IMG/VR virus record: IMGVR_UViG_3300025459_000003
Coordinates: 32,001-96,000 of that record
Direction: 5' to 3' (one strand)
Length of the DNA stretch: 64,000 nucleotides
Source: a virus
Shown here: positions 27,264-52,196 of the stretch, one piece after another
How positions within the stretch are numbered: the first letter of the stretch is position 1
How the letters are laid out: each line of letters opens with the position of its first letter
Made by a program: the position numbers and the translations under genes
The notes under the pieces: model-generated
What the model was told of the DNA's origin: nothing
The model's database searches: none
Seen by the model: only the letters and a program-made list of their open reading frames with translations

Positions 27264-27421
27264 GGGCGTGCGGCGCGATGCGGCGAGCACGAAGAACGCG
27301 ATGGCCGTCGAGACAGAAAACGGGGCACCGTGCCTGTCCTAGCGGCTTCCGGGCGACGAGCGGGGCATGCCAGCAACCGCGTAGAGAGCGAAGCCACGCC
27401 ACCGGGATTCCGGCCACGCCC
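27264..27421 (+). ncRNA. candidate tRNA-like structured RNA with a long insert
   Basis: GGGCGTG/CACGCCC closing stem; D-arm-like and T-arm-like (CCGG-GATT-CCGG) segments. Confidence 0.3.
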
Positions 27422-27431
27422 GTCCTTTCAC

Positions 27432-29078
27432 ATGCCGAAGTTCGAGATCGTCACCGCCGACATCATCGACTGGGCCGCCTTGTACGACGGCCCGAAGTTC
27501 CACGCCGTGCTCTCGGACCCGCCCTACGGCATTGAATTCATGAACAAAAAATGGGATTCCCCCCAGGAGCTCCTGAAGGATGCCCCCCAGGGCAGGCCAG
27601 CGGCCTGGCCCCCGCCCGGCAACCTCGGGGGGTTCGCGGACGGCAACAAGCCCAGCTTCGCCCGCCAGGGCAAGGTCCAGAGGAAGTACCAGGAATGGTG
27701 CGAGCAGTGGGCGGCGGTCCTCCTGCCCGAGCTCCATCCCGGGGCGGTGTCGCTGTTCTTCGGCGGTACCCGCATGTGGCACCGTCTGGCGGGCGGCATC
27801 GAGGACGCCGGGTTCGAGATGTGGGACACCATCATGTGGCTCTATGGCCAGGGGATGCCCAAGGCGCTGGACGTCTCCAAGCTCATCGACAAGAGGAACA
27901 AGGACGAGCGCGGGGTCGTCGGGTACGACGCGTCCCGGGCACGCCCCAATAGGGTCGACAACACCGGGTACGACGACGCGGGCAAGGTGCCCAGCGACCG
28001 GTCCGACAACGGGGCCACCATCACCGCCCCGGCCTCCGCCGAGTCCGCCCCGTGGTCCGGGCACAAGACGTGCAGCCTCAAGCCCGCATGGGAGCCCGTC
28101 CTGTGCTTCAAGGCCCCGATGGGCGGCAGGACCTACGCCGAGCTGGCGACCGGGTTCGGCAGCGGGGCGCTGAACGTGGACGGGGCGAGGGTCGCCGCGG
28201 ACGACGGAGCGCAGGAGGGAGGCGGCAGGGAGGGCGAGGCGTCGGCGGACAGGCGCTATGCGGAGGAGGGCTCGACGGACTTCGCCGTCAGGCCGGGTCC
28301 CAGGGGCGGCGACGCCAGGGGGAGGTACCCCGCCAACCTCGTCCTGGGATGCACGTGCAAGCACACGGAAATCGTGGACATGCCAGCGACGGGGCACTTC
28401 CCCTCCTCGCGGTTCAAGGAGACCCCGATCTTCGGCGGCGGAAAGGGCATGCCCATCGAAACGGGCCAGGAGGAGCGGTACGTCGGGGGCAAGGCTGCGA
28501 TCCATACGGATCCCTCGTGCCCGTGCTATTTGCTCGACGAACAGGCCGGGGAGCGGGGCGCTTCCGCGCCGGTCCAAGGCAACGAGCCGAGCACCCGGAT
28601 GGGCGAGCATGGCATATACTCGACGGCAAACAAGCGGCTGCCGGGCTCGTTCTTCGGCGATGCGGGAGGCCCCTCCCGCTTCTTCTACCAAGCCAAGGCG
28701 TCCCGCGGCGAGAGGGAGACGGGGCTCCTGGGCTTCGTCCCCTGCCACAAGTGCGGGGATCTCGGCAGCCAGAAGCACGTCGACCCCAAGACCGGGAAGG
28801 ATGCGAAGTGCGTCAGGAACAACCATCCCACCGTCAAGCCCATAGCCCTGGCCAAATACCTGGCCACGCTCCTCCTGCCTCCGCCGAGCGCCAGCCCCAG
28901 GAGAATCCTGGTGCCCTTCTCCGGCAGCGGGAGCGAGGTCATAGGCTGCCTCCTGGCCGGGTGGGACGAGGTGGTGGGGGTGGATGTCGATCCCCACTAT
29001 TCGGAGATCGCCAGGCGGCGGTGCGAGGCGGCGCTCAGGGGCGAGTACGACAAGACCGTCGAGGAGGACGAAGGATGA
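27432..29078 (+). CDS. DNA amino-methyltransferase (N6A/N4C, beta class)
   Basis: DPPY, LKPAWEP, GRYPAN, HPTVKP, PFSGSGS. Confidence 0.9.
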   Translation: MPKFEIVTADIIDWAALYDGPKFHAVLSDPPYGIEFMNKKWDSPQELLKDAPQGRPAAWPPPGNLGGFADGNKPSFARQGKVQRKYQEWCEQWAAVLLPELHPGAVSLFFGGTRMWHRLAGGIEDAGFEMWDTIMWLYGQGMPKALDVSKLIDKRNKDERGVVGYDASRARPNRVDNTGYDDAGKVPSDRSDNGATITAPASAESAPWSGHKTCSLKPAWEPVLCFKAPMGGRTYAELATGFGSGALNVDGARVAADDGAQEGGGREGEASADRRYAEEGSTDFAVRPGPRGGDARGRYPANLVLGCTCKHTEIVDMPATGHFPSSRFKETPIFGGGKGMPIETGQEERYVGGKAAIHTDPSCPCYLLDEQAGERGASAPVQGNEPSTRMGEHGIYSTANKRLPGSFFGDAGGPSRFFYQAKASRGERETGLLGFVPCHKCGDLGSQKHVDPKTGKDAKCVRNNHPTVKPIALAKYLATLLLPPPSASPRRILVPFSGSGSEVIGCLLAGWDEVVGVDVDPHYSEIARRRCEAALRGEYDKTVEEDEG

Positions 29079-37953: not shown

Positions 37954-40506
37954 TCAGGCGCTTGTGGCGGCGGCCAGATTCTTAGCTGCATTCTCCGTCT
38001 TCTTGAAGCGTGCGTGACAGTTGGGGCATTCGAGCCTGTTGTTCTTCGTGACGCCGAATGCGCCGAAGTAGCCGCAGGAGTTGCACGTCTGTACGACTTC
38101 GAGCGACGCCGCTTTCGTGACTGCGACCTCCACCCCGTGATTCCGTCCGATGTTTCTGAGGATGGCGGTGAAGTCCCCCAGGGCCAGCCGCTGCCTGTAT
38201 TCGTGGAACATTTCCGTCTTCTTGGACTTTTCCCGGCTTTCCCCGATCCCCTTGACGTCCATGTTCTTGATTACGACCTTCCCGTAACCATTGTCCGCCA
38301 GCGTCTGCATGATCAGCGTGCAGACCTTCTCGTACTCCTTCTCGCGGCGACCGGTAATGCGCCCGCTGATGAAGTTGAACAGCTCTCCGGCCTTGGCGTC
38401 CTCGGTCGCCCATTTCACGATTGCCGCCCTGGCCTCGGGATGCGCCGCCATGAGGATGTCGTCCTTGAGCAGGCTTTTGATGCCCGAGGAACGGCTTCTT
38501 TTGAGCCAGGGAGGAACATCGTCGCCCAGCTCCTCCATGAGGTGTTCTTTGAGGCGATCCTCGCAGAGGTCCCGCTCGGCCTGCATCTCCTTCTTGTACT
38601 CGAACGTGTCGGTTTCCTTCTTGCCATGCTCCCGGTTCCGCCTGCCCCACCGAGTTTCGCCCAGTTCGGCCACGAAGGGCTCGGGGTCGAAGGAGAAGAG
38701 CCTGACGCCTGTTTCCTTCTCGGTCACGATGCGCATGTTTAGCATCTTCGAGGAGGCCGCGTCCAGGACGTCCATCTTGCTTTCGAAGTCAGAGGCGCTC
38801 TCGGTCCCCCCTTCCGGCAGGCCGCTGGAAGCAAGCCACTTGCCCGTCATGCCGCTCCATTCGGCAGCCGATAGGAAACTATGTCGCAGCTCGGGGCGCT
38901 CGCCGAGGACGCCCGCGACGGCGTATGCCAGCATCGGGGGCCTCGGGTTCATGTTTGCGAAGATCGCCATCGTCCTGCCTTCGGCGGGAAGGCTCAGGGT
39001 GCCGATCTGTGCCAGGTTCTCCCTGGTGCTCCATCGCAGGTCGAGGCCTGCGGTGCTCCCCTTCACGGGCGCAGGGGCGGGCAGCTCCAGCGATAGGGAG
39101 AGCGAAATCCTCCCCGTCCTTTCCTTGAAGGAAAGCCACCATTTCTTGATGTAATGGCTTCCGGCCTTCTCCCCGAGGTTCGACGTTATTAGGACCCCCA
39201 CGGTAAAGGGCTTCAGGCCCTTTCCGCCGGAGAATGTCAGGGGACGTAGCTGCCGGTTTCTCCAGCGCTTTCCCCGGCCCTTGCCCGCCTCCTCGTGCCC
39301 GCTGTCCTGGGGGTCTACGGGAGGGCCCAGCGTCAGGCCTAGTACTTCCTGGCCCGCAAGGAAGCTTCGTATGGTGGTGGCCTCCGAGTTCCCTTGCTTG
39401 TTGCGGTTGGCAAGGGTGATGTTTCCGCTTTTCTCGTCCTCCTCGTAGCGCAGCTTCGGGAGCCCCTTCCATGGCTTCTCGTCGTTGGTTATGCGCTGCT
39501 TCAAGGTGCATTTGATGTTCTCGAACACGACGTCCCGCTCCGGCAGGGAGGAGAACATCTGCCGGACCCCGTCCAGGCTGGGGGCCTTGTTCGGCCGCTG
39601 CTTCCATCCTTCCTTGTCGTCGAACACCATCTCCCTGAGCGGATATTTCCCTGCGCGCACGTCCGGGTCGTTGCGCCAGCATTCGTCCCAGTGGTTGATC
39701 ATGCGGAAGAGCGGGGTGAAGTCGGTGGGATATTGGGCGAGGAACTTGTCAATCTCCTCCAAGAGGCCTTCGGGCACGGGATGCTCGTGCTTCTTGTCGT
39801 GCCGCAGGTTGCTGGCAACCATCCGCAAGGAGACAGCGGACAAATCCGTCTTCGCCTTTTCGCTGAGCTCGTTCTTGTAGGAGAACTTCCGGCCCTTGCC
39901 TTGACGCATGTTGAACTGGTCGAGGACCTCGACCACGTGAGTGGCGAATGTCCCGAGTTCCACGGCCGGGATGCTCTGCGTGCATGCCCGAAGGGCTTCC
40001 TTGAACATGTACGCCATGTGCTGCCTTGCCTTTCTGACCCTCGTCTTGACGCCTTCTAGCCACGCTGGAATCTCACTGGTGGCTATGCCCACATGGTGTA
40101 GGTAGATGGGCATCAGCCAACCCTTCGATATGGAGGTCGAATCTCTTTTTATCCCTGTGTTTCCGGAGATCACGAAGACGGTTTCGGGATGCTTCTTGGT
40201 CGCCACTCGCTGCTTGAAGGTCGCCAGGCGTTGGCACGCCTTTCCGTTGACCATGTAGGGCGTCTCGGAGGCATAGAGGACGATCTCGATCTGTTGCCCG
40301 GCTTCAACCATCCCGTCCATCGCCACGGGGGAGTCGAGCACGGCCCTGTTCCTCCCGCTACCGATGGACAATTTATGTGTTTTCGGGAAAAACGCAATGG
40401 TTCCCGATGAAAATTGTCTGGACTTCGACCTATCTATTCGGTCGGCATGCAGTCGGAGTTCCGTCCCGTCCCATGTCACCTTCGTCCATTCCGCCTTTTT
40501 GAGCAT
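37954..40506 (-). CDS. TnpB/Cas12-like type V effector, predicted nuclease-dead (~850 aa)
   Basis: RuvC-I AGLDLRW, RuvC-II VVIKNM (E->K), CNSC/CPNC zinc finger, RuvC-III KKTENAAKNL (D->T); GGGAGG RBS before ATG 40506; linked to the array. Confidence 0.8.
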   Translation of the reverse strand: MLKKAEWTKVTWDGTELRLHADRIDRSKSRQFSSGTIAFFPKTHKLSIGSGRNRAVLDSPVAMDGMVEAGQQIEIVLYASETPYMVNGKACQRLATFKQRVATKKHPETVFVISGNTGIKRDSTSISKGWLMPIYLHHVGIATSEIPAWLEGVKTRVRKARQHMAYMFKEALRACTQSIPAVELGTFATHVVEVLDQFNMRQGKGRKFSYKNELSEKAKTDLSAVSLRMVASNLRHDKKHEHPVPEGLLEEIDKFLAQYPTDFTPLFRMINHWDECWRNDPDVRAGKYPLREMVFDDKEGWKQRPNKAPSLDGVRQMFSSLPERDVVFENIKCTLKQRITNDEKPWKGLPKLRYEEDEKSGNITLANRNKQGNSEATTIRSFLAGQEVLGLTLGPPVDPQDSGHEEAGKGRGKRWRNRQLRPLTFSGGKGLKPFTVGVLITSNLGEKAGSHYIKKWWLSFKERTGRISLSLSLELPAPAPVKGSTAGLDLRWSTRENLAQIGTLSLPAEGRTMAIFANMNPRPPMLAYAVAGVLGERPELRHSFLSAAEWSGMTGKWLASSGLPEGGTESASDFESKMDVLDAASSKMLNMRIVTEKETGVRLFSFDPEPFVAELGETRWGRRNREHGKKETDTFEYKKEMQAERDLCEDRLKEHLMEELGDDVPPWLKRSRSSGIKSLLKDDILMAAHPEARAAIVKWATEDAKAGELFNFISGRITGRREKEYEKVCTLIMQTLADNGYGKVVIKNMDVKGIGESREKSKKTEMFHEYRQRLALGDFTAILRNIGRNHGVEVAVTKAASLEVVQTCNSCGYFGAFGVTKNNRLECPNCHARFKKTENAAKNLAAATSA

Positions 40507-40524
40507 ATGTATCCTCCCGTCCTT

Positions 40525-40558
40525 ACTATACACCGTTGGACGAGCAATTTTCGGGAAT
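40525..40558 (-). promoter_or_regulatory. promoter of the cas operon (CGAAAA-N17-TATAGT with extended TG)
   Basis: Same family as the other phage promoters; back-to-back with a + strand GGTATACT. Confidence 0.6.
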
Positions 40559-41874: not shown

Positions 41875-43398
41875 TTATTTAATGTCAGAATCCCTGACTC
41901 CAGTAATGAAACGATACTTCAGGAGTAGAGATTCACTGTCCAAGCTCTCGGCCCTAACAAATACCTCATACACAAATCCTCCATTTAGGGTGCTATTCCA
42001 GACAGCACTTTGCGCCCACGAATCGTTGATGCAACTTTGAATTTCGCTGTCGTTCAGCTTGTCCACCAGGTGCTTTACCCGGCTGCCCATCCCCTCCTGG
42101 CCCATGAGCAGGCCCGACATGCCGGAGAAGTCCCGCTGCTCCACCTGGTCGAGCTGGAGGGAGCCGGTCCCCGGCACCTTGTCCAGCGGCGGCCGGCTGG
42201 TCACCTTCCATGCGCTGATGAACGTGGCCGCCACCTCCGCCATGACCTTCTTGAGGAACGCCCCGAACTGCTCCTTCTCGCCCCCGAACGCCGCCGCCTG
42301 CTTGGCGACCACGTTCATCGCCCCGCCCTCAGGGCCCATGTCGAAGTTCTGGTAGAATTCCTCCTGGAACATCGGGCCCCTGATCTCGTCCTCAGTCCGG
42401 AACGGCTTGCCTTCGAGCACCTGCGGCTTGAAGTCCCTGCCGAGGCCGACCGCCCCCGGGGAGGTGCTGACGTAGCCCAGCTTCTTCATCCCGTCAAAGG
42501 ACGCCTCGATGGCGATGTCGAGCTCGGGGTCCTCGTGCGGGTCCCCGACGATCCCCCCTATCGTGGACTCGTTCGTCCCCTTGGCGACGTCCACCCCGGA
42601 ATCTACCATGGGGGCGTTCGTGGCGTTGGGGGAGTCCACCAGCTCGTGCTGGAGGTCCGGATAGAATTCCCTGAGCGCCTGGCCGGGAAAAAAGAAGTTG
42701 AAGCCCGCCTCCTTCCCCGCCTTCCCGTCCTTGCGGACGTCCTTTTTCGACGCGACGACCCCGCCCTCCGTTGGCCCCATTTCCCTTTCCTTCGTCCCCC
42801 CGGAGTCGAACTGCACGGTCCCGCCCCTGGCCAGCGTCTCCACCGGGTCCTCGACCTGGTAGTTCTGGTGCCAGTAGACGTTCCCGTCCGGGTCGCTGAT
42901 GATGGGGGCGTCGGTCAGCGCCCCGAGGTCCTCGGGGGCCTCCCATCTCCAGCCATTTTCCGTGGCCTCCGCCAGCAGGTGGTGCAGGGCGTCGACGGTC
43001 GCCTCGTTCGCGAGGGATGCCGCCAGCCTCTGACCCTCGTCCGTGGCGGACACCTGGAGGCGTCCGTAGCCGTCCGTGGACAGGGTCACCAGCCGCCCCG
43101 TGAACCCCATATCCTCGGGCAGGTGCTCTTTGACGTCGTCGAGCGCCCCGCCCTCGCCTTCGGGCCTCATGGCCCATTCCTCCAGCTTGTCCGTGTCCGC
43201 CGTCTTGAGCCCCTCGGGCTTCTCCCCGTCGATGTAGCTCTTGTCGGAGGTGACGGCGACGGAGCCCGGGGCGGAGAAGTCCGGCCCCCACTTCTCGGCC
43301 GCGGCCTTGATGAAAGCCTCCGCCGTCTCGGGGGACGAGAAGCTCGCCTCCCGCTTCTTGCCCTTGAGCACGAACTCGACCTTGTTGTCCTTTGCCAT
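41875..43398 (-). CDS. acidic putative head/internal virion protein
   Basis: MAKDNK start with its own RBS; KxA motifs; in frame with the upstream NTase ORF. Confidence 0.55.
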   Translation of the reverse strand: MAKDNKVEFVLKGKKREASFSSPETAEAFIKAAAEKWGPDFSAPGSVAVTSDKSYIDGEKPEGLKTADTDKLEEWAMRPEGEGGALDDVKEHLPEDMGFTGRLVTLSTDGYGRLQVSATDEGQRLAASLANEATVDALHHLLAEATENGWRWEAPEDLGALTDAPIISDPDGNVYWHQNYQVEDPVETLARGGTVQFDSGGTKEREMGPTEGGVVASKKDVRKDGKAGKEAGFNFFFPGQALREFYPDLQHELVDSPNATNAPMVDSGVDVAKGTNESTIGGIVGDPHEDPELDIAIEASFDGMKKLGYVSTSPGAVGLGRDFKPQVLEGKPFRTEDEIRGPMFQEEFYQNFDMGPEGGAMNVVAKQAAAFGGEKEQFGAFLKKVMAEVAATFISAWKVTSRPPLDKVPGTGSLQLDQVEQRDFSGMSGLLMGQEGMGSRVKHLVDKLNDSEIQSCINDSWAQSAVWNSTLNGGFVYEVFVRAESLDSESLLLKYRFITGVRDSDIK

Positions 43399-44244
43399 TT
43401 TCTTCTCCCTATTAGACTGATGGAAAGCGAAAAGCTCGTCTTCCTCCGCCCCGGCAAGAAGTTCCAATGCCCTCTGACGGGATACCTTTTGCGGGGGCTC
43501 GTGCAGGCCGTCCCATATTTTTTCGTATTCCGTTTGATGCACTTTGCCTTTCATGAAATTACGAGGCAGGTTGTTGTTTATGACCAATGTTTTTACATCC
43601 ACGATATCCTGGCCTCGTACCTGCAATTTGATTTCGGCACCCTTGTAGCTGCCCATAAAGCTCCCTATCTTCAAATCCAACAAGGTGGGCAAATCGCAAA
43701 CTTTCGGTTCCGTGTTGATTTCCTGCGGTATGGGGTTGGGAACGTCAGTCCCTTTTATCTTCCATCCGCCTTGGATTATGTCTATCTTCACGTTGTTTTC
43801 GGGGTCCGAAACTGCTATCGGATTGAGAATCTTATACCCATTCTGGATCAGGATGTACCTCGCTTGCCTGGCATTCGACACGGACAAGTCGATGTCCTCG
43901 GTGTTGCGGGCATATCCGTGCTCTTGCACGGCAATTGCCCCCACGACCAGGGTGCCCACGCCGTTGGTTCCGAGGATTTTGACGACCTTGTTCAAGGCAT
44001 CTTCCTTGTTACCACTGAATTTCCGTATATGCACGGCCTCTTTGTGGTTGAATCCCGGCTGCGACACATTATCGGCCATGGAAGCCACTTGTTCCTTTTC
44101 GTCGTCCGCCAGCCGCATCCACGGACGGTCGAAGAAATCCACTGGGAACCTGTGGCTTTGCGTCCTCAGCCATCCGATACGAAGGTGGCCTAGCTTCAGG
44201 CCGTCCCATCGCCTTCCGACCTCCGTGTTGTCGATGGCATCCAT
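43399..44244 (-). CDS. nucleotidyltransferase-like domain (no stop before the next gene)
   Basis: VVGAIAV..HGY.R.TEDID, KIDI, L..LK, D..D motifs; lower GC. Confidence 0.65.
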
Positions 44245-44372
44245 CCGTTTCCTCAGGGCTCCGCCCCCTCGAAGTCCCTCAGCCTCGGGAACTCCTTCTG
44301 GAGGTCCTTCCATGCCAGCTCCGCCGCCTCGTCGTCGCTCTTCCCCTCGTCCACGTAGAACAAGGCGAAGTC

Positions 44373-45254
44373 CTATGCGTGCTCCTCCTCGGGGGTCAGC
44401 TTGACCAGCCTGCCGCCGGGGGCGCTTCCCGCCGCCCCGCCTTCGTCGGGCCCGATGGTCCCGAGGATCTTGACCTCCCCGGGGGCTCCCTTCCTCTTCG
44501 TGTCGGCGCATTCCTGGCAGAGCCTGGACTCGATGCCGAGCGCCTCCACCAGCACGGCGGCGGGATGCGGGCATTCCCCCGCGGCATGCCGCAGGACGCA
44601 CGCGCCCTCCTCGCAGCCGCATTTTTCCGGCCCGCCGGAAGCGGGTCGCGGGCCTCCGAAGTCGGCAAGGACCGACAAATAGGTCAGCCCGGTGCTGGCC
44701 TTGATGCCCATCTCCTTCATGAACCGCTTGTCGAAGCTGTTTTCCACCGGCATCCCCTCCCCCCTGGGCGCTTCCCTTTTTTCTTCCCTCACTGCCCTGT
44801 CCTGGGTTTCAGTCTCGTCCAACCAGTTCTCGGCTATCTCGGCCCAGTTCGGTTCCGTCCAGGGCTCCAGCCATCCCGACTGCCCGCCCATGTCGCTGCG
44901 GATGAGGTCCATCGCCTCGGCGAGGACGTCCCCCGCCCGGCTTCCCGTGCTCGGGGGCTTCTTTCCCTCGATCTGCCTGGCCTCGAACTCCCCGGACTCC
45001 GTCCGGGCCTCCAGGGCGTTCTCCTCGTATTCCCGCTTGGCCTGGTCCCTGATGCCCCTGAAGCGCTCGGCGAATTTCCTGGCGCAAAGGTTGACGATGC
45101 CCTGTTTCGGAAGGCCCCTCGACGCCCCCGACGCCATGGCGTGCCGGACGCCCAGCATGGCCGCGTCGTGGGTCGAGCGGCTGTTCCCGATCAGCAGGTT
45201 GACGTACCAGGTCTGCCAGTCCGTCCAGCCTTCAAAGTCGGCCTTCTTGAGCAT
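44373..45254 (-). CDS. putative head-associated modular protein (probable readthrough/extension to 44253)
   Basis: 293-aa ORF; coherent in-frame sequence continues past the TAG. Confidence 0.55.
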   Translation of the reverse strand: MLKKADFEGWTDWQTWYVNLLIGNSRSTHDAAMLGVRHAMASGASRGLPKQGIVNLCARKFAERFRGIRDQAKREYEENALEARTESGEFEARQIEGKKPPSTGSRAGDVLAEAMDLIRSDMGGQSGWLEPWTEPNWAEIAENWLDETETQDRAVREEKREAPRGEGMPVENSFDKRFMKEMGIKASTGLTYLSVLADFGGPRPASGGPEKCGCEEGACVLRHAAGECPHPAAVLVEALGIESRLCQECADTKRKGAPGEVKILGTIGPDEGGAAGSAPGGRLVKLTPEEEHA

Positions 45255-45255
45255 C

Positions 45256-48200
45256 CTATCTCCAGCCCGCCTGGGTCGGCAAGTGCTCCTGGATGTCGTC
45301 GAGCGCCCCGCCCTCGCCCTCGGGCCTCATCGCATAATACTCCAGCACCTCGTCGTCGTCGAGGTCCGCCGCCACGGCCTCCAGGAACCACTTCATGTGC
45401 TTCACGTTGCCGACTATCTGGCCGACGTTGGCCGCCACGTCGTAGATGCGCTCGTCGTCGTTGTCGATGAGCTCCTGGGCGAGCCTGAGCCTCATTTCGC
45501 CCTCGGGCGTTAGCCCTCCCTCGCTTGCCCTCTTTCCCGGGGGGGCCACTATCCCCTTCTCGATCAGCTTCTGCTCGTCCTCCATGCTCATGTTGCTTTC
45601 TTCCGGAATCACGTTCCTCGCCTCGGACTCCAGGCCCGGGCCGCCCACGACGTTCAGGCCGTCGTCCTTCATCCCTTCGATGATGGCGTCGGCATACCCG
45701 TGCTCGATTGCCGCCCCGCCCTCGTACCACTGCCAGTCTTCGAGCTGGAGGTTCTCGTCGATCCATTCCCTGGCGGCGTCGCTTTTCGGCCTCAGCAGGA
45801 CGATTGAGCCCAGGTCCTCGACCTCGACGTCGGCCTCCCCCTCGGGGGCGGGCGCTCCTTGCCCGGCCTTCTTCTTGGCGGGGGGCTCGTTGTTCAGCCC
45901 GCCCTCACCGGCCTGCGGGGCCTTGGCGGGCTCCTCCCCCGTCACTTCCGGAAGGTTGGCCGCGAGGTCCGCCAGGTCGCCCAGCATCGCCCCCATCCCC
46001 ATCTCCTCGTCCAGGTCGTCGCCCGTGGCGGCGCATCCCACCTTCGCCGCGTCGATGGGGTCGACGGTGCCGGAGGCGTTCGGGTTGTCCACCGGTCCCG
46101 CCTCGGGCCCGGCATGCCCGACGTCGGACGACGTGCCCAGATCGGCCTGCTTGGCGGCAAGCCTGGCGGGGCCGCCCGGCCCAGCGGCGGGACCCAGTAT
46201 GTTGGCATAGTCGAACTTGCCATCGGGGGCATCGGAGTGGAGCTCCGGAATCCTCGCCCTCCCGCTCCAGAATTGCACCCTGTCGCCTTCCTTGAGGGGA
46301 AAGTCCGCCGCATCCCATAGCGTGAAATACCTCGTGCCGTCGATGGTCACCCACGAGTATTCCGAGCCGTCCTCACTGCGTCCGGCTTCGATTTTCTCGA
46401 CGGTCCCCTCCCGTTCCGGGGGCTCCTGGTCGCTCTCGCGCACCGACTGGCGCAGTTCGCCCGGCACGTCCGAGCCGGCCGGGAAGCCGTCCTCGTCCGT
46501 AGCTGCCAGCTTCGCCGGGTCGACCGTCTGGGTCGCGGCGGGGTTGTCGGCGAGGGACGACTTCGCCCCCTTGTCGGTCTCCGACCTGGCCTTCGCAACG
46601 TCCGGGGCCACCCCGTCCGCCGCCTTGGCGAACTTCCCCGGGTCCTCCGTCCTCGTGGCGTCCGGGTTGTCGGCGATGGAGTCCTTCGCCCCGTGGTCGA
46701 GCCTGGACTTGGCCTCGGCGATGTCGGGCGACACGGACTGGTCGGCCTTCTTGGCGGCCAGCTTTTCCGCATCAACGGTCTGCGTGGAGACGGGGGTGTT
46801 CGCCAGCTCGGCCTTGGTCTTGCCCTCCAGCCCGGACTTCGCCTTAGCGACGTCCGGGGCGACGTCCTGGTCGGCCTTTTTGACCTTCGCCTTGCCGTCC
46901 CCCACCGAGATGGCGATGGCGACCTCCGGGTCGTCCTTGGCCTTCTCCGAGGCTCTGATCCCGGCGTGCTCCAACGCGTCGTCCCATATGCTCCCGAAGG
47001 ACTGCACCTGGATGGAGCGCTTCTTGTTCAGGGCCTTCTCCCTCCTGGCGGAGGCGGCCCTGGAGCGCTCGGAAACGGCGGCCTCGTCCCCGTCCAGCGG
47101 GCGGGCGATCTCCTCAGCCACCGCGTCGGCGGTGCCCTCCTCGCCCTTCCTGGCCTCCGCCCTCTGCTGCACCAGCTTGGAGTGCCCCGTCTCGGCCCTG
47201 CGGACCTCGGCATGCGACGCGGCCTTCGCCGTCTTGGGTTTCTCCTTGTCGGTCTTGGGGTCCATCGCCCCCTCGCCGCCCTTCTCGTTGGCGATGTTGT
47301 CCACAGTGTCGGCGGTCTTGCGGCCCTCCCCGACGACCCCGTAGTCCTTCGGGTCCACGGAGCCCGTCACCAGGGGATTGTCCTGCCATGCCGCCTCGGC
47401 GCTCTCGTATCCGAGCCGCCTGGCAAGGCCCCACGTGTCCGAGTATGCCTTGAACTCCTCGAACCCGCCATCGTAGACGTTCTGGAGGCGATCCTCCCAC
47501 GTCGCCCGATGGCTGCTCGCCTCCTTCTTGTCATCCTTCTTCTCGTCATCCTTCGTGCCGGGCAGCTTCCCTTTGTTCTTGCAGAAGCCGCACTCGCAGC
47601 CCTTGGCATGGGCGGCCGCCTTTTTGAGCGATCCGCTGTGGGCGTGCATGTCCTGGAGGTGTGACTTGGCCGCCTCCTCGCTCTTGTGGCTGGAGAGTAT
47701 CTTACCCGTCTCGTGGGACTTCACGCACCATTCCGCCAGCTCGCCCTTTGAGTTCTTGTGGCCCTTGCAGTGCTCGACGTAGGAGACCTTGACGAACGCC
47801 GCCCTCTTCCTGGGGGGGAGGCCGATTGCCTTTCCGGCAAGCTCCCGCCAGGTCGGGGCGTAGAACTCGTCGTAGCTCAGGCTGGTCCTTCCCGGCGCGC
47901 CGTCGTTCGCCCACGGTCCCGCCGTCTTGGCGTCGCTGGCCTTCTTCGAGTCCCGGGCCGCCAGCGAGTTCGTGTAGCATGCCCGGCAGAGGCCCCACTT
48001 TTTCCCCTTGGAGTCCGTGTACTGCTCGGTCGCGTCGTTCGGGCAGGGCCTGCTGCCGTTCGGGTTCTGGCACTTTGCCGCCCCCGTCTTGGGGTTCGGG
48101 TCGGGGGCCTTCTCGGGCTCCGTCCCGCGGGTGTTGGCCTTCTCGGCGTCGGTCTTGGGATGGATGATGTTGGCTTCCCCGCCCGCCTCGTTCGCCGGGT

Positions 48201-49782
48201 TGTCCGCCGTGTCGGCGGTCTTGGACGTCCCTTCGTACTTCCGGGAGTCGATCCCGTAGCGCCTCAGGGTCTCCCTTGCCTCCTCCTTGGTCGGCGGCCC
48301 CATCACCCCCGCGATGGTGTCGGGCATGCGCAGGGTCTTTATGGCTATCCGAAGGCGGTGCCATTCGGGGGAGCCCTTCTCGGGAAGGCGGCCCCCGAAC
48401 TTCTCGATGTCGAACCCGCCCCTGCTGAGGCCGATCCCGCTGGCCTGCTTGTCCAGGATCCACCCGATGCAGTCCTCCATCGAGGCGGGGCCCGCGGCCA
48501 CCTTCCCGTCCTGCCTCACCACGTAGCTGCCCGAGGCCTCCTTCTCGTCGTGGCTGAAGTCCATGCCGCAGTTGCGGCAACGGAAGTGCTGCCGGGTGCC
48601 CAGGGCCCCCAGGTAGGTGCCTTCCCCGCCGCATGCCGGGCAGCTCCCGTGCGGGGCTGTCTCGTCGAGGTACTGGTCCTCCAGCGGCTCCTCGTCGTCG
48701 CTGGTGTCCGTTACCCATCCCTGGGAGCCCGGGTCCCACGCCTTGCCGCTGTTCGGGCATCCCGTCTCGTGGCAGTTCAGGCCGTTGATGTTCATCATCT
48801 CGCACTGGTTGCAGTGCAGGACGTTGGGGTCCTCCTCGTAGTCGGCGGCCTTGGCGACCGGGGAAGCCGACGCCTCCTTCGGCCCGGTGCCATCGTCGGC
48901 CCGGGGCACCTCGGCGTTGGCGTCCGGCTTCTTGTACTTGCTGTCCGCCGCCTCCTCGGGACTCTTCGTCTCGGGCCTCAGGGTGCCCTTGAGGGCGTCC
49001 CCGAGGGCGTCGAACACGTCCATCTCGGCCGGCTCCAGGACTTCCTTGGTTATGGCGTCCGCCGTCTTGGCGTCCAGAAACACCTTCTTCTTCGCCAGGC
49101 CCACCTTGCTCAGCTCCGGGTACGCCCTGAGGGGGTTCTCCGTGAGGGCCGGGTAGGTCAGCTTGGGCGTCACGTCGGTCACGTCGAGCTTCGTGGTGTC
49201 GACGTTGGTCATCAGGGCGTCGAAGCCGCTGGAGACCGCGGGGTTGAAGTAGCACCCGAACACCAGGTGGCGCAGGAGATCCGCCAGCTTCGCCTCGTCG
49301 TCCGTGAACTTGAAGCACACGTACTCCCGTATCCCGCTCCAGGAGGGGGCGAATAGGACCAGCGAGACGTTCTTTCCGTCGACGGTGAAGCACCTTTCCT
49401 TGAGGGCCTTGAGGTGCGCCTTGGCGTCCTCCGGCTCGTCGAACTCGCTCCCCGACTTGAGGGAGACGAGGTCGGCCATCTCCTCGCCCAGCCCGAGCTC
49501 CCTGAGCACCGTGCCGTAGAGCAGGGCGACCGGGAAGTCGTCCGGCTTGTCGCAGACGGACGCGGGGACGACGAAGATGCGCCCTATGCAGACGTTCTGC
49601 CTGAAGCCGTGGTAGAAGACCTCGAAGCTCTTCACGTCGCCGGAGGAGCGGGCATCCTTCTCGCCCTTCTTGACCGCTTCCACGATCTTCTGGAGCAACC
49701 CCTCGTTGACCACGAAGGCCTGGTAGCCCTTTCCCGAAATGCTGTTTCCGCTTACGGCCATGTCACTTACCCCCTGCCGCAC
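45256..49782 (-). CDS. 1508-aa modular putative head polyprotein with internal repeats
   Basis: Many KTA/KKA/KEA/KQA motifs, Zn-ribbon modules, 3x ADQ.V.PD.A.A.S repeat. Confidence 0.65.
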   Translation of the reverse strand: MRQGVSDMAVSGNSISGKGYQAFVVNEGLLQKIVEAVKKGEKDARSSGDVKSFEVFYHGFRQNVCIGRIFVVPASVCDKPDDFPVALLYGTVLRELGLGEEMADLVSLKSGSEFDEPEDAKAHLKALKERCFTVDGKNVSLVLFAPSWSGIREYVCFKFTDDEAKLADLLRHLVFGCYFNPAVSSGFDALMTNVDTTKLDVTDVTPKLTYPALTENPLRAYPELSKVGLAKKKVFLDAKTADAITKEVLEPAEMDVFDALGDALKGTLRPETKSPEEAADSKYKKPDANAEVPRADDGTGPKEASASPVAKAADYEEDPNVLHCNQCEMMNINGLNCHETGCPNSGKAWDPGSQGWVTDTSDDEEPLEDQYLDETAPHGSCPACGGEGTYLGALGTRQHFRCRNCGMDFSHDEKEASGSYVVRQDGKVAAGPASMEDCIGWILDKQASGIGLSRGGFDIEKFGGRLPEKGSPEWHRLRIAIKTLRMPDTIAGVMGPPTKEEARETLRRYGIDSRKYEGTSKTADTADNPANEAGGEANIIHPKTDAEKANTRGTEPEKAPDPNPKTGAAKCQNPNGSRPCPNDATEQYTDSKGKKWGLCRACYTNSLAARDSKKASDAKTAGPWANDGAPGRTSLSYDEFYAPTWRELAGKAIGLPPRKRAAFVKVSYVEHCKGHKNSKGELAEWCVKSHETGKILSSHKSEEAAKSHLQDMHAHSGSLKKAAAHAKGCECGFCKNKGKLPGTKDDEKKDDKKEASSHRATWEDRLQNVYDGGFEEFKAYSDTWGLARRLGYESAEAAWQDNPLVTGSVDPKDYGVVGEGRKTADTVDNIANEKGGEGAMDPKTDKEKPKTAKAASHAEVRRAETGHSKLVQQRAEARKGEEGTADAVAEEIARPLDGDEAAVSERSRAASARREKALNKKRSIQVQSFGSIWDDALEHAGIRASEKAKDDPEVAIAISVGDGKAKVKKADQDVAPDVAKAKSGLEGKTKAELANTPVSTQTVDAEKLAAKKADQSVSPDIAEAKSRLDHGAKDSIADNPDATRTEDPGKFAKAADGVAPDVAKARSETDKGAKSSLADNPAATQTVDPAKLAATDEDGFPAGSDVPGELRQSVRESDQEPPEREGTVEKIEAGRSEDGSEYSWVTIDGTRYFTLWDAADFPLKEGDRVQFWSGRARIPELHSDAPDGKFDYANILGPAAGPGGPARLAAKQADLGTSSDVGHAGPEAGPVDNPNASGTVDPIDAAKVGCAATGDDLDEEMGMGAMLGDLADLAANLPEVTGEEPAKAPQAGEGGLNNEPPAKKKAGQGAPAPEGEADVEVEDLGSIVLLRPKSDAAREWIDENLQLEDWQWYEGGAAIEHGYADAIIEGMKDDGLNVVGGPGLESEARNVIPEESNMSMEDEQKLIEKGIVAPPGKRASEGGLTPEGEMRLRLAQELIDNDDERIYDVAANVGQIVGNVKHMKWFLEAVAADLDDDEVLEYYAMRPEGEGGALDDIQEHLPTQAGWR

Positions 49783-49839
49783 CCGGCCTCTTTGGTCCGA
49801 CCGGATGCTTGTAGATTTCGACGATGCGTCTTCCGAGCC

Positions 49840-50403
49840 TCACAGCTTTCCCTTGCCGCCTATCTTGTCGGTTTCACGGCGAATCTGGGGCTCGGCAAGG
49901 GTCATCAAGTCCCTATAGTGCTTCATGATGCTCGTGCGCTGGTCCTCCAGGACCCCGGCCTCCCTCAGCGCCTTGTCGAACAGGGCAACGATCTGGCCGA
50001 GGGCGAACTTGAACTTCTCCCCGTCGAACCTCAGGATGTCCTTCTTGTTCAGGACCTCCGTGTCCATGAGCTGCTTGCCCATCTCGCGGAGCGCCTTGAT
50101 GAGGTCGGAATACGCTTTTTGCTGGTACGCCTTCAGGTAGTCCCGCCGCTGCTCCGCCATCTCCTTCGTGATGCAGGCGAGCTCCGCCGATATCAGGCGA
50201 CTTATCTCGGTGGGGTCGGCCTCGGTGTCCTGGATCAGCGTGTAGATGGCGTCCAGCCGCGTCGTGTCCGGGCGCACGAGCGGTGTCGTGGTGGTCTCCC
50301 CGTCCGGGCCTATCTGCGCGAACACGGGGCCGGAACGGGACACGTTCCCGTCCTCCCCTATCCTGATCTCCTGCTCCATCGCCACGCCCGTCGCCTTGCT
50401 CAT
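49840..50403 (-). CDS. helical hypothetical protein
   Basis: MSKATG start coupled to the upstream stop. Confidence 0.6.
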   Translation of the reverse strand: MSKATGVAMEQEIRIGEDGNVSRSGPVFAQIGPDGETTTTPLVRPDTTRLDAIYTLIQDTEADPTEISRLISAELACITKEMAEQRRDYLKAYQQKAYSDLIKALREMGKQLMDTEVLNKKDILRFDGEKFKFALGQIVALFDKALREAGVLEDQRTSIMKHYRDLMTLAEPQIRRETDKIGGKGKL

Positions 50404-52196
50404 AGGTCCCCTGCGCTGGGCTTGCTGCCCATCTCTATCCCTTCCCTGTCCTCGTTGAGGTCGATGTCGGCCTGTTCGGGCTTGTCGACCAGGTCGTATT
50501 CCCTGAGCGTCGTCGCGGCGTCCTCCGGGGGGGCCGACGCCGTCTTCCTGCCCGTCTTCTCCATCCCCGGGAATGCCAGGAGCGTGCCTCCCGTGAGCCC
50601 GCAGTGCATGTCGGAGCGGTAGGTGCAGTCGGCGCACTTCGTTGCCCCCATGATGGCGTTCCGTATGCCCAGCTTTCCCTTGAGGAACTTGCAGTCTATC
50701 TGGGACAGGGCGACCTTGGTGCCTTTCTCCTTAAGGGAGGCGACGAACGCCTTGACCGCCCGGCCCGCCTGCACGGACCCAACCTTGAGGCTTCCCTTCC
50801 TGTAGATTTCGTCCAGGGAAGCGCCGTCCTTGTGCATCGCCTCCACCGCCTCGGGATCGAACTCCGCCGAGGCCTCCTGGCGGAGCTCCCGGACGTTCTC
50901 GATGGTCCTTTGCGACGTCTTGGCGAAGGGGCGCGGGGCTGGCGTTGCCGCCACCGCCCGCTGCGGCTCGCGGTTGGCGATCTGGATCAATGCCGCCCGC
51001 TTGGACTTTGCCGGGACGCCGGCCGTCATCCTGTTGACGATGGGGGCCAGCTCGGCGGCATTGGAGACCACCGGCAGGTGGTAGAGGTTGCACGTCTTGT
51101 CCCTGAAGAAGGCGCAGCCCTCGCAGGCGGCGACCTTCTTGACGCTCTGGGCGCGGGGGACGATGCCCGCCGCCTTCCAGGCATTGTGCTGGCGCACGCA
51201 GTCGGCGCTGGTGGCTACTGAACCAGTCTTCGGCTTGACGGTCAGGATTTTCTTGCACTCGGGGCAGTAGTGGTTCCCCTCCCGCTTCTCCGGCGTCACG
51301 TCCTTGTTGCAGTGCGGGCAGGGGTCCTTCTTGGACTCGGCGGTCTTGGAGGCCGTGCGGAACTTCGCGGCGCACTCGTTGCAGTAGTAGGCCTTGAACG
51401 GCTCGCCTTCCAGGTCGGCGAAGTCCCCGATGGCATTCCTTTGCTCTCCGGAAACACCTTCGATGCCTTCTCCAAACAGCTTAGTTTCGCCACATCCCAT
51501 GCACTCGGCGTAGAACGGCGGCCCGGTGACGGGCTGGATGTTCATCGCCCGCTTCCCGATGCCACCCACTTTCTCCCGCTCGTAGGTCGGGCTTTGGTAG
51601 GGCATGTAGGCGTTGGGCTCCAGGTAGGCCAAACCCAGCAGCCCGGCGTTCTGGTTGAGGTAGCTCATGCCCATGTTGTCCTTCTTGTTGAGCAGCTCTA
51701 TCTCCCCTATCTTCTTGAGCCGTTCCGCCACCTTGGCCGGGGGCGCGCCCTGGTTGAGCAGGTCGCGGACGTACCTCTTGACCTCCTCGTCCGTCACGTT
51801 CCTCTTCTCGACTGACGCCTCGCTCTCCGCCTTGCCGAGGGACATCGTCACTTCCTCGAACAGGGACTCGTCGCTCCCTCGCTCGTTCTCGTAGTCCTCG
51901 GGCCTTGCGGCCAGGCGGGTCCGCGCCCTCTGGCCAGCCCCCAGGCGGGGGGCGGCAGCGTCCTTCTCCGACAGCCGGTTCAGGAGCACAGCGCTCTTGC
52001 TGTTGCTGGGGAGCTGGGTATGGCGGCTGGACCCTTCCGCGATCTCGTCGAGGAAGCCCTCGTCGACGTACTGGTGCGTACGGTCTAGCTGCTCCTTCCC
52101 GGACTTCTCCGCATCGGCGAGCCCCGCGTCTTCCCACGAAGGATCCCTCTCGTCCAAGATGGCGTCGATGATCGAACTGTATTCTTTGTCAGCCAT
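50400..52196 (-). CDS. Cys-rich putative head-associated protein
   Basis: 598 aa; multiple CxxC clusters; KTA motifs. Confidence 0.6.
   Translation of the reverse strand: MADKEYSSIIDAILDERDPSWEDAGLADAEKSGKEQLDRTHQYVDEGFLDEIAEGSSRHTQLPSNSKSAVLLNRLSEKDAAAPRLGAGQRARTRLAARPEDYENERGSDESLFEEVTMSLGKAESEASVEKRNVTDEEVKRYVRDLLNQGAPPAKVAERLKKIGEIELLNKKDNMGMSYLNQNAGLLGLAYLEPNAYMPYQSPTYEREKVGGIGKRAMNIQPVTGPPFYAECMGCGETKLFGEGIEGVSGEQRNAIGDFADLEGEPFKAYYCNECAAKFRTASKTAESKKDPCPHCNKDVTPEKREGNHYCPECKKILTVKPKTGSVATSADCVRQHNAWKAAGIVPRAQSVKKVAACEGCAFFRDKTCNLYHLPVVSNAAELAPIVNRMTAGVPAKSKRAALIQIANREPQRAVAATPAPRPFAKTSQRTIENVRELRQEASAEFDPEAVEAMHKDGASLDEIYRKGSLKVGSVQAGRAVKAFVASLKEKGTKVALSQIDCKFLKGKLGIRNAIMGATKCADCTYRSDMHCGLTGGTLLAFPGMEKTGRKTASAPPEDAATTLREYDLVDKPEQADIDLNEDREGIEMGSKPSAGDL

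Follow-up and report, generated by a model that had tools for sequence, protein, structure and literature searches.

What might a large phage gain from a CRISPR effector that lies next to its guide array and has lost two of the three metal-binding residues of its nuclease site, and does the helicase gene encoded beside it belong to the answer? The question is raised by a block of genes in the IMG/VR virus record IMGVR_UViG_3300025459_000003, which we analyzed in a stretch of 64,000 nucleotides (nt) covering positions 32,001 to 96,000 of the record (hereafter the window, to which unprefixed coordinates refer). The record is 157,656 bp long with a CheckV completeness of 49%, and since the window carries genes for a large terminase subunit, collagen-like fibers and DNA methyltransferases, the host element can be taken to be a large phage. 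On the minus strand, the block consists of a gene for an enlarged relative of Cas12m, a gene for an SNF2-like helicase-methyltransferase of 1038 amino acids (aa), a gene for a 102-aa protein, a terminator-like hairpin and a 25-repeat CRISPR array, in that order. With a probability of roughly 60%, we read the Cas12m relative as a phage-borne DNA binder guided by CRISPR RNA (crRNA), one that does not cut and that probably works with the helicase module. The gene at the center of this reading is

37954-40506, minus strand: cas12m-like effector gene, 850 aa from the ATG at 40506

The open frame spans 37954-40533 on the minus strand and would encode 859 aa counted from a GTG at 40533, but the likely start is the ATG at 40506, six bases downstream of a GGGAGGA ribosome-binding site. 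The resulting 850-aa protein is identical with the database gene call (P0004) and agrees with the coordinates of a first-pass annotation of this DNA, made from the sequence alone. The GC content of the frame, 0.80 at third and 0.43 at second codon positions, is typical of the real genes of the window, and its composition is as expected of coding sequence.

Taken by itself, the 850-aa sequence finds only weak TnpB/Cas12 matches, confined to the C-terminal 150 residues (Pfam TNB, E 4.6e-4; NCBIfam IS607 TnpB, E 3.6e-5; Fanzor2 9b0l, E 0.0017), and no significant Cas12m match, so that it is the family profile and the fold that tie the protein to Cas12m. Among 1.8 billion representatives, a full HMMER search returned 53 relatives, 29 of them below 1e-10, which share 26-32% identity with the window protein and many of which are 700-850 aa long. 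Word-indexed searches returned the query alone, for the Cas12-like protein and for the helicase; neither had a tblastn match among GenBank phages, and scans of IMG/VR with P0004, with its relative P0005 and with the helicase alignment yielded nothing. When a profile built from 22 full-length relatives was compared to the PDB, Cas12m came first (23vw, 9e-39; 23vu, 1e-28; 8hio, 3e-19; 8pm4, 2e-17), followed by TnpB and Cas12f. An AlphaFold2 model built with the family alignment (mean predicted local distance difference test score, pLDDT, of 71.8) had Cas12m2 8hhl as its best Foldseek match, with E 1.7e-16 and a template-modeling (TM) score of 0.52 normalized by target. Superposed on Cas12m, Cas12k and TnpB, the model put Cas12m at the top in fold: VIA-align matched model residues 123-850 to residues 1-592 of the 8hhl chain (Z 18.8, root-mean-square deviation 6.7, 467 residues aligned) and gave Z 18.6 for GoCas12m 8pm4, whereas Cas12k chains scored far below, at Z 12.1. 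By profile and fold, the homology to Cas12m spans the WED, REC, RuvC (with a large helical insertion) and TNB regions. The view of the first-pass annotation that this was a Cas12/TnpB-like protein of about 850 aa is thereby borne out, TnpB being about 400 aa, and the evidence from profile and fold supports Cas12m as the closest known kind.

The shorter proteins among the HMMER relatives are canonical Cas12m, as exemplified by P0049, which matches 23vw full length at 1.6e-42. When a maximum-likelihood tree was built, a single branch parted 21 long proteins from 12 canonical Cas12m-like ones, with 100% support in the Shimodaira-Hasegawa-like approximate likelihood-ratio test; this tree is unrooted and has no outgroup, and a sister and a nested position of the long family look the same in it. 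Within the long-family clade, no terminal branch is longer than that of the window protein (1.54). Other assignments were considered and rejected. CasPhi, CasLambda, Cas12o, Cas12p and Cas12k scored much lower than Cas12m, by profile as well as by fold. TnpB does not fit a protein of 850 aa with a 25-repeat array, the NCBIfam TnpB models scored 22.9 against a cut-off of 350 bits, and no transposase was found among the neighboring genes scanned. Type V-K, the CRISPR-associated transposon type of Cas12k, was dismissed on the low fold score of Cas12k and on the lack of tnsB, tnsC and tniQ families among the same genes.

The catalytic site and the zinc finger were located as follows.

39040-39042, minus strand: codon of the RuvC-I Asp489 (AGLDLRW), kept; from the family alignment and a codon check
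38266-38268, minus strand: codon of Lys747 at the RuvC-II Glu position (VVIKNM); from the family alignment and a codon check
37996-37998, minus strand: codon of Thr837 at the RuvC-III Asp position (KKTENAA); from the family alignment and a codon check
38017-38085, minus strand: TNB zinc finger CxxC...CxxC, Cys808, Cys811, Cys827 and Cys830; from the alignment and a codon check

Most of the 53 relatives keep Asp/Glu/Asp, in the motifs AGxDIGWR, IExxF and DQDxNAA, and the window protein has Asp/Lys/Thr in their place. A kept RuvC-I Asp, replaced RuvC-II and RuvC-III residues and an intact finger had all been noted in the first-pass annotation, and each holds at the level of single codons, with all four Cys residues present. 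The Pfam TNB match, weak for the window protein, reaches 1.6e-17 among its relatives. RuvC residues have also been lost independently elsewhere in the family: P0027 and P0034 read His/Gln/Asp, P0053 reads His/Gln/Glu, and the RuvC-I residue is Asn in P0025 and Glu in P0008 and P0009, while the Cas12-like protein of a related locus on another contig (L011, described below) is more degenerate in RuvC than any of these. For Cas12m, degenerate RuvC triads have been reported before (PMC10442227, PMC10691335); its clades are defined by HEK/HQK, HDD, DED/NED and DND triads (PMC10442227), among which Asp/Lys/Thr is not listed, and a 'gradual inactivation' of its catalytic site has been described (PMC10691335). 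All tested Cas12m bind DNA and leave it uncut, and their pre-crRNA processing is independent of RuvC (PMC11013384, PMC10442227); binding by the DED, HDD and NDD variants is PAM-dependent (PAM, protospacer-adjacent motif), and Cas12m with an intact Asp/Glu/Asp likewise does not cleave DNA (PMC11013384). The loss of Glu and Asp thus fits a binder and need not prevent crRNA maturation. From homology and the published Cas12m biochemistry, we infer that the window protein would bind DNA without cleavage.

A different outcome can be envisioned, in which the protein is still a nuclease, either through a rearranged site combining Asp489 with Asp750 or Glu838, or through a nuclease recruited in trans. 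Asp489 is retained, acidic residues (Asp750 and Glu838) adjoin both of the lost positions, and catalytic-site rearrangements have been described in TnpB and Cas12 (PMC10691335). However, the family alignment has acidic equivalents of Glu838 and Asp750 in relatives with an intact triad as well, and therefore these do not appear to be compensating changes. Moreover, even the intact Asp/Glu/Asp of Cas12m leaves DNA uncut (PMC11013384), and profile scans detected no nuclease domain in the neighboring genes. We regard continued nuclease activity as very improbable.

The protein has regions that Cas12m lacks, listed here with the REC-like region.

40141-40506, minus strand: N-terminal beta-rich domain, residues 1-122, absent from all solved Cas12/TnpB chains and without recognizable fold
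39472-40086, minus strand: helical REC-like region, residues about 141-345, from the secondary structure of the model and aligned to Cas12m REC
38677-38949, minus strand: insert after RuvC-I, residues about 520-610, from the family alignment and with low model confidence

Cas12m is about 600 aa long and starts at the first WED strand, whereas the window protein aligns with it only at residues 123-850 and adds the 122-aa N-terminal domain and the insert of roughly 90 aa after RuvC-I. In VIA-align, all solved Cas12/TnpB chains begin aligning at model residues 120-133, and the native start of Cas12m 23vw falls at about position 120 of the family profile; therefore, residues 1-122 are an added domain. 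It is beta-rich both in the full-length model and when modeled alone (pLDDT 78), in keeping with the first-pass annotation, which had described an extra N-terminal domain as a beta-rich segment of ~130 aa followed by a Cas12m-type WED/REC start. Searched alone, the domain had no convincing fold relative (best Foldseek match in the PDB, E 0.33; best in a wide VIA-align search, Z 3.9; ESM Atlas, TM <=0.39), which does not show the fold to be new. Nearly all members of the long family have the domain. In the first-pass annotation, this extension or the long insert after RuvC-I had been suggested as a possible docking site for the helicase. One of the members with the domain is P0008, in whose locus no helicase lies from -1.1 kb to +8 kb; the domain is thus not specific to helicase-linked members, which makes a role particular to the helicase less likely. 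The insert of ~90 aa is found in the window protein alone within the family alignment and has low pLDDT.

Downstream of the effector gene, the block continues as follows.

34790-37906, minus strand: SNF2-like superfamily 2 (SF2) helicase fused to a class I S-adenosylmethionine (SAM) methyltransferase domain (residues about 890-1030), 1038 aa
34485-34793, minus strand: 102-aa protein, 52% identical to the C-terminal domain of P0058, a protein of the related locus L011
34343-34376, minus strand: strong terminator-like hairpin, 15 pairs and a T run, between the protein genes and the array
32721-34279, minus strand: CRISPR array, 25 repeats of 36 nt and 24 spacers mostly of 30 nt, crRNA sense on the minus strand

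The three protein genes stand in tandem on one strand with gaps of <=26 nt, and the hairpin, located 3' of all three, is the only strong one in the block. The repeat ends in a conserved 3' hairpin handle, AGTTCATCGGGTAGATGAAAC, and the same 3' hairpin (6-7 pairs, a loop of 5-7 nt and a 2-nt tail) is found in six repeats from five family loci, with stem letters that differ by locus (TTCATC/GATGAA, TTTCCC/GGGAAA, TGCATC/GATGCA, TTCACTC/GAGTGAA and TTTCTC/GAGAAA). Judged by the repeats, this is the usual type V layout, in which a repeat-derived handle precedes the spacer on its 5' side. Complementarity to the repeat, the mark of an anti-repeat or trans-activating RNA (tracrRNA), nowhere exceeded 14 nt in the 158-kb record, and profiles of Cas1 and Cas2 had no match in this record, which is estimated to be 49% complete.

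Close to its gene-proximal end, the array has a run of five identical repeats. The repeat by the presumed leader (34244-34279) differs at three positions from these five identical repeats behind it and matches an older variant. At the other end (32721-33520), the old units preserve the AGTTCATCGGGTAGATGAAAC half while the 5' half of the repeat decays, and several spacers are only 14-24 nt long. Spacers 10 and 18 (33155-33190/33125-33154 and 33651-33686/33621-33650) are identical at 28/30 positions, and the blocks around them (33089-33194 and 33585-33690) repeat at 90% identity; therefore, either part of the array was duplicated as a segment or two variants of one target were captured. Spacer 9 (33687-33716, CATAGCTCGGTTGGTTAGAACAGCGGACTC) looks like the 5' half of a tRNA gene and had no exact match in 185,579 prokaryote genomes. 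No spacer had a full protospacer match within the phage's own 158-kb record, the collagen-like repeats of which match spacer 5 at 22/23 positions, and searches of public collections with exact patterns from three spacers gave no protospacers in IMG/VR, in metagenomes or, for the tRNA-like spacer, in prokaryote genomes.

With these features in hand, one could argue that the locus is a decaying remnant that lost its catalytic site through relaxed selection and has no present function. This would be consistent with the longest branch of the clade, with a low-confidence, lineage-specific insert, with the decay of the older half of the array and its shortened spacers, and with a counterpart in L011 that is split into two frames and has heavily degenerate RuvC motifs. 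Against it stand an 850-aa frame without stops and with strong coding composition, the retained zinc finger and positions conserved family-wide, five identical gene-proximal repeats, and a hairpin half that is conserved even in old units; and the loss of RuvC residues is recurrent and tolerated in functional Cas12m (PMC10442227, PMC11013384). Together with the ribosome-binding site, the intact frame, its composition, the identical repeats and the conserved hairpin are evidence for a functional locus, and we consider decay improbable.

The second gene of the block encodes a protein with the SF2 helicase motifs GIGKSRT, DELQ, MTAT, TTGIDG and QFARRIVR. It has a PHROG DNA-helicase match at 4.5e-12, and its language-model neighbors are phage SNF2/ResIII/Helicase_C clusters (score 0.93); no Cas3 or HD match to the helicase was found in Pfam or NCBIfam. 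Its methyltransferase domain matches Methyltransf_11 at 1e-6, and the nearest solved structures are generic SAM methyltransferases. A 582-aa DNA methyltransferase (phrog_67, E 1e-28) is encoded separately at 27330-29078 on the plus strand. As to the 102-aa protein, its ESM Atlas model resembles clusters annotated as cereblon/Yippee-Mis18, GFA and DUF427 (TM 0.5-0.61), which we take to share the beta-tent fold; this is a weak lead.

Three other contigs likewise have a helicase homolog near a relative of the Cas12-like gene. A 61-kb phage-like contig (L001-L003) carries the cas12 gene of P0005, with an intact Asp/Glu/Asp, together with an 844-aa helicase without methyltransferase and a 10-repeat array. 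In a 130-kb contig (L009), the cas12 gene of P0014 is followed by a degenerate mini-array, five unrelated genes and a helicase that is 51% identical to that of L001. In a 141-kb contig (L011), a helicase-methyltransferase-small-domain fusion, P0058, comes first, followed by a Cas12-like gene and then an array; P0058 is 33% identical to the helicase-methyltransferase of the window, and its last 96 residues are 52% identical (E 2e-30) to the 102-aa protein of the window. The fusion in P0058 ties the small protein to the helicase module. Thus, the trio is kept together in three gene orders at 23-34% protein identity, and the helicase lies between cas12 and the array in two loci, those of the window and L001-L003, whose proteins share only 23-28% identity. 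Of the four loci in all, the two with the methyltransferase fusion are the same two with a dead RuvC site, a coincidence that, coming from four loci, is suggestive and no more. The survey leaves out P0006, P0009, P0010, P0013, P0021, P0025 and P0027, whose contexts were too short or lacked DNA sequence and so were uninformative on helicase linkage.

Several details of these contigs deserve mention in their own right. The mini-array downstream of P0014 (L009:10330-10800) consists of hairpin handles alone, about 22 nt long (GTTTCTCGRANAGAGAAAAC) and irregularly spaced, and includes two back-to-back 38-nt units. The Cas12-like gene of L011 (L011:13455-16104), with heavily degenerate RuvC motifs, was called as two overlapping frames of 409 and 492 aa, which could reflect a frameshift, a sequencing error or a pseudogene. 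P0007, a member of the long family with an intact triad, is encoded on a 211-kb contig with plasmid-type genes (PRTRC, ParB-like, DnaB), where a 796-aa SNF2/ResIII-like gene lies 5 kb upstream, followed by a 1.1-kb gap without a called gene.

From these observations, a pathway can be proposed for the binder and its helicase. The effector would bind crRNAs of the adjacent array through the conserved 3' repeat hairpin, find complementary double-stranded DNA and stay bound to it, leaving it uncut because two of its three RuvC metal-binding residues are gone (Asp/Lys/Thr versus Asp/Glu/Asp). The helicase-methyltransferase and the 102-aa protein, presumably co-transcribed with it, would then be brought to the crRNA-marked site and could translocate along, remodel or modify the target, much as a helicase follows Cascade in type I and the effector in type IV-A systems. 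The likely targets would be competing phages or other foreign DNA, which the bound effector may silence or block as Cas12m does. A more ambitious version of this proposal, which we put forward tentatively and think rather less than even in its chances, is that large phages have a distinct helicase-assisted type V system, in which a dead, N-terminally extended Cas12m-like protein guides an SNF2-type translocase-methyltransferase and a small domain to chosen DNA. If true, it would be a natural programmable machine for remodeling or methylation, directed against competing phages or host defense genes with the DNA left uncut.

The strongest competitor to the helicase partnership is a simpler arrangement, where the dead Cas12m-like protein acts as a lone crRNA-guided roadblock and the helicase-methyltransferase is an unrelated phage gene, serving for example replication, recombination or anti-restriction, in the same block. 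Canonical Cas12m indeed needs no more than binding for silencing (PMC11013384, PMC10442227). Phages often encode SNF2-like helicases, and just upstream of the cas12m-like gene, on the same strand (41875-52196, minus), are genes for very large proteins of 915, 293, 1508 and 598 aa, whose matches (LPD7, Lar-like zinc ribbon, DUF7249) are no more than faint and which recall the polyvalent proteins of phages. Fusions of a helicase with a methyltransferase occur among phage polyvalent and anti-restriction proteins. The locus of P0008, which has an array, and that of L009, where the helicase is 5.4 kb from cas12 behind the five unrelated genes, could be read in the same way. Against a lone roadblock, the helicase is inserted between cas12 and the array in two loci despite the low identity of their proteins, the trio stays together in L011 even though the gene order is rearranged, and in the window the three genes are in tight tandem with the sole strong terminator-like hairpin after them. 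We therefore think it unlikely that the effector works alone.

Along with the acidic neighbors of the lost catalytic residues, a number of findings weigh against a helicase-assisted binder. The partnership with the helicase, and its recruitment, is suggested by gene neighborhood only. The linkage is not universal, as P0008 illustrates, and in L009 it is not one of adjacency. All four helicase-linked loci come from contigs of large phages, two of which (L001 and L009) are syntenic, and shared ancestry therefore accounts for part of the co-occurrence. The similarities of the methyltransferase domain are to small-molecule or RNA methyltransferases and not to known DNA methyltransferases. No protospacer was found for any spacer tried, so that no target or PAM was derived.

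How does the locus compare to known systems? To type V-M Cas12m (MmCas12m2, 8hhl/8hio; GoCas12m, 8pm4; 23vw and 23vu), it is alike in profile, fold, single crRNA, adjacent array and lack of an anti-repeat; beyond the differences in size, triad and tree position already given, the long family occurs on phages and other mobile elements, with an SNF2-like helicase linked to it. A close precedent for such a linkage is provided by the Cas12m-Cas3 hybrid loci of Altae-Tran et al. (2023, PMC10910872), in which a non-cutting Cas12m-type effector lies beside a helicase that possibly adds interference beyond binding. However, the partner there is a type I-C-like Cas3 helicase-nuclease, whereas the partner in the window is SNF2-like, carries a methyltransferase domain and is accompanied by the 102-aa protein. 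Type IV-A with CasDinG and type I Cascade with Cas3 share the logic of a crRNA-guided, nuclease-less binder and a separate helicase, a comparison of mechanism only, since these are class 1 multi-subunit effectors with helicases of unrelated families and no homology to the window proteins. A phage type II-C Cas9 with a dead RuvC lies beside an SNF2 helicase and has been proposed to be an anti-CRISPR mimic; it has an active HNH and no array (PMC10910872). The likeness is that of a phage class 2 effector with an inactivated RuvC and an SNF2-type neighbor, and the difference is that the effector of the window is Cas12m-like and has a 25-repeat array. MvCas12m of the myxophage MV-1, called the first phage Cas12m, is 610 aa long with an intact Asp/Glu/Asp (bioRxiv 10.64898/2026.09.14.751636); it is similarly phage-encoded with an adjacent array and has neither adaptation genes nor a tracrRNA, but unlike for the window protein, no helicase partner or N-terminal extension is reported. 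The 2025 classification lists accessory proteins of class 2 systems, none of the SNF2-helicase/methyltransferase kind (PMC12669027). In the literature, we found no paper linking a Cas12m-like effector to an SNF2-like helicase or a helicase-methyltransferase.

Class 2 CRISPR effectors are regarded as self-sufficient, and helicase partners such as Cas3 and CasDinG are a hallmark of class 1. A recurrent combination on phages of a Cas12m-type binder with an SNF2-like helicase-methyltransferase would thus add a new functional layout to type V, and a helicase-linked binder would show how CRISPR without a nuclease is used by phages against their rivals or hosts. A system of this kind could also serve as a natural scaffold in which RNA-guided DNA binding is joined to an ATP-driven motor and a methyltransferase. 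With members of 700-850 aa and a new N-terminal domain, the long family extends the structural range known for Cas12m-like proteins, and its several independent RuvC losses make it a good test case for the role of the RuvC site in binders that do not cut.

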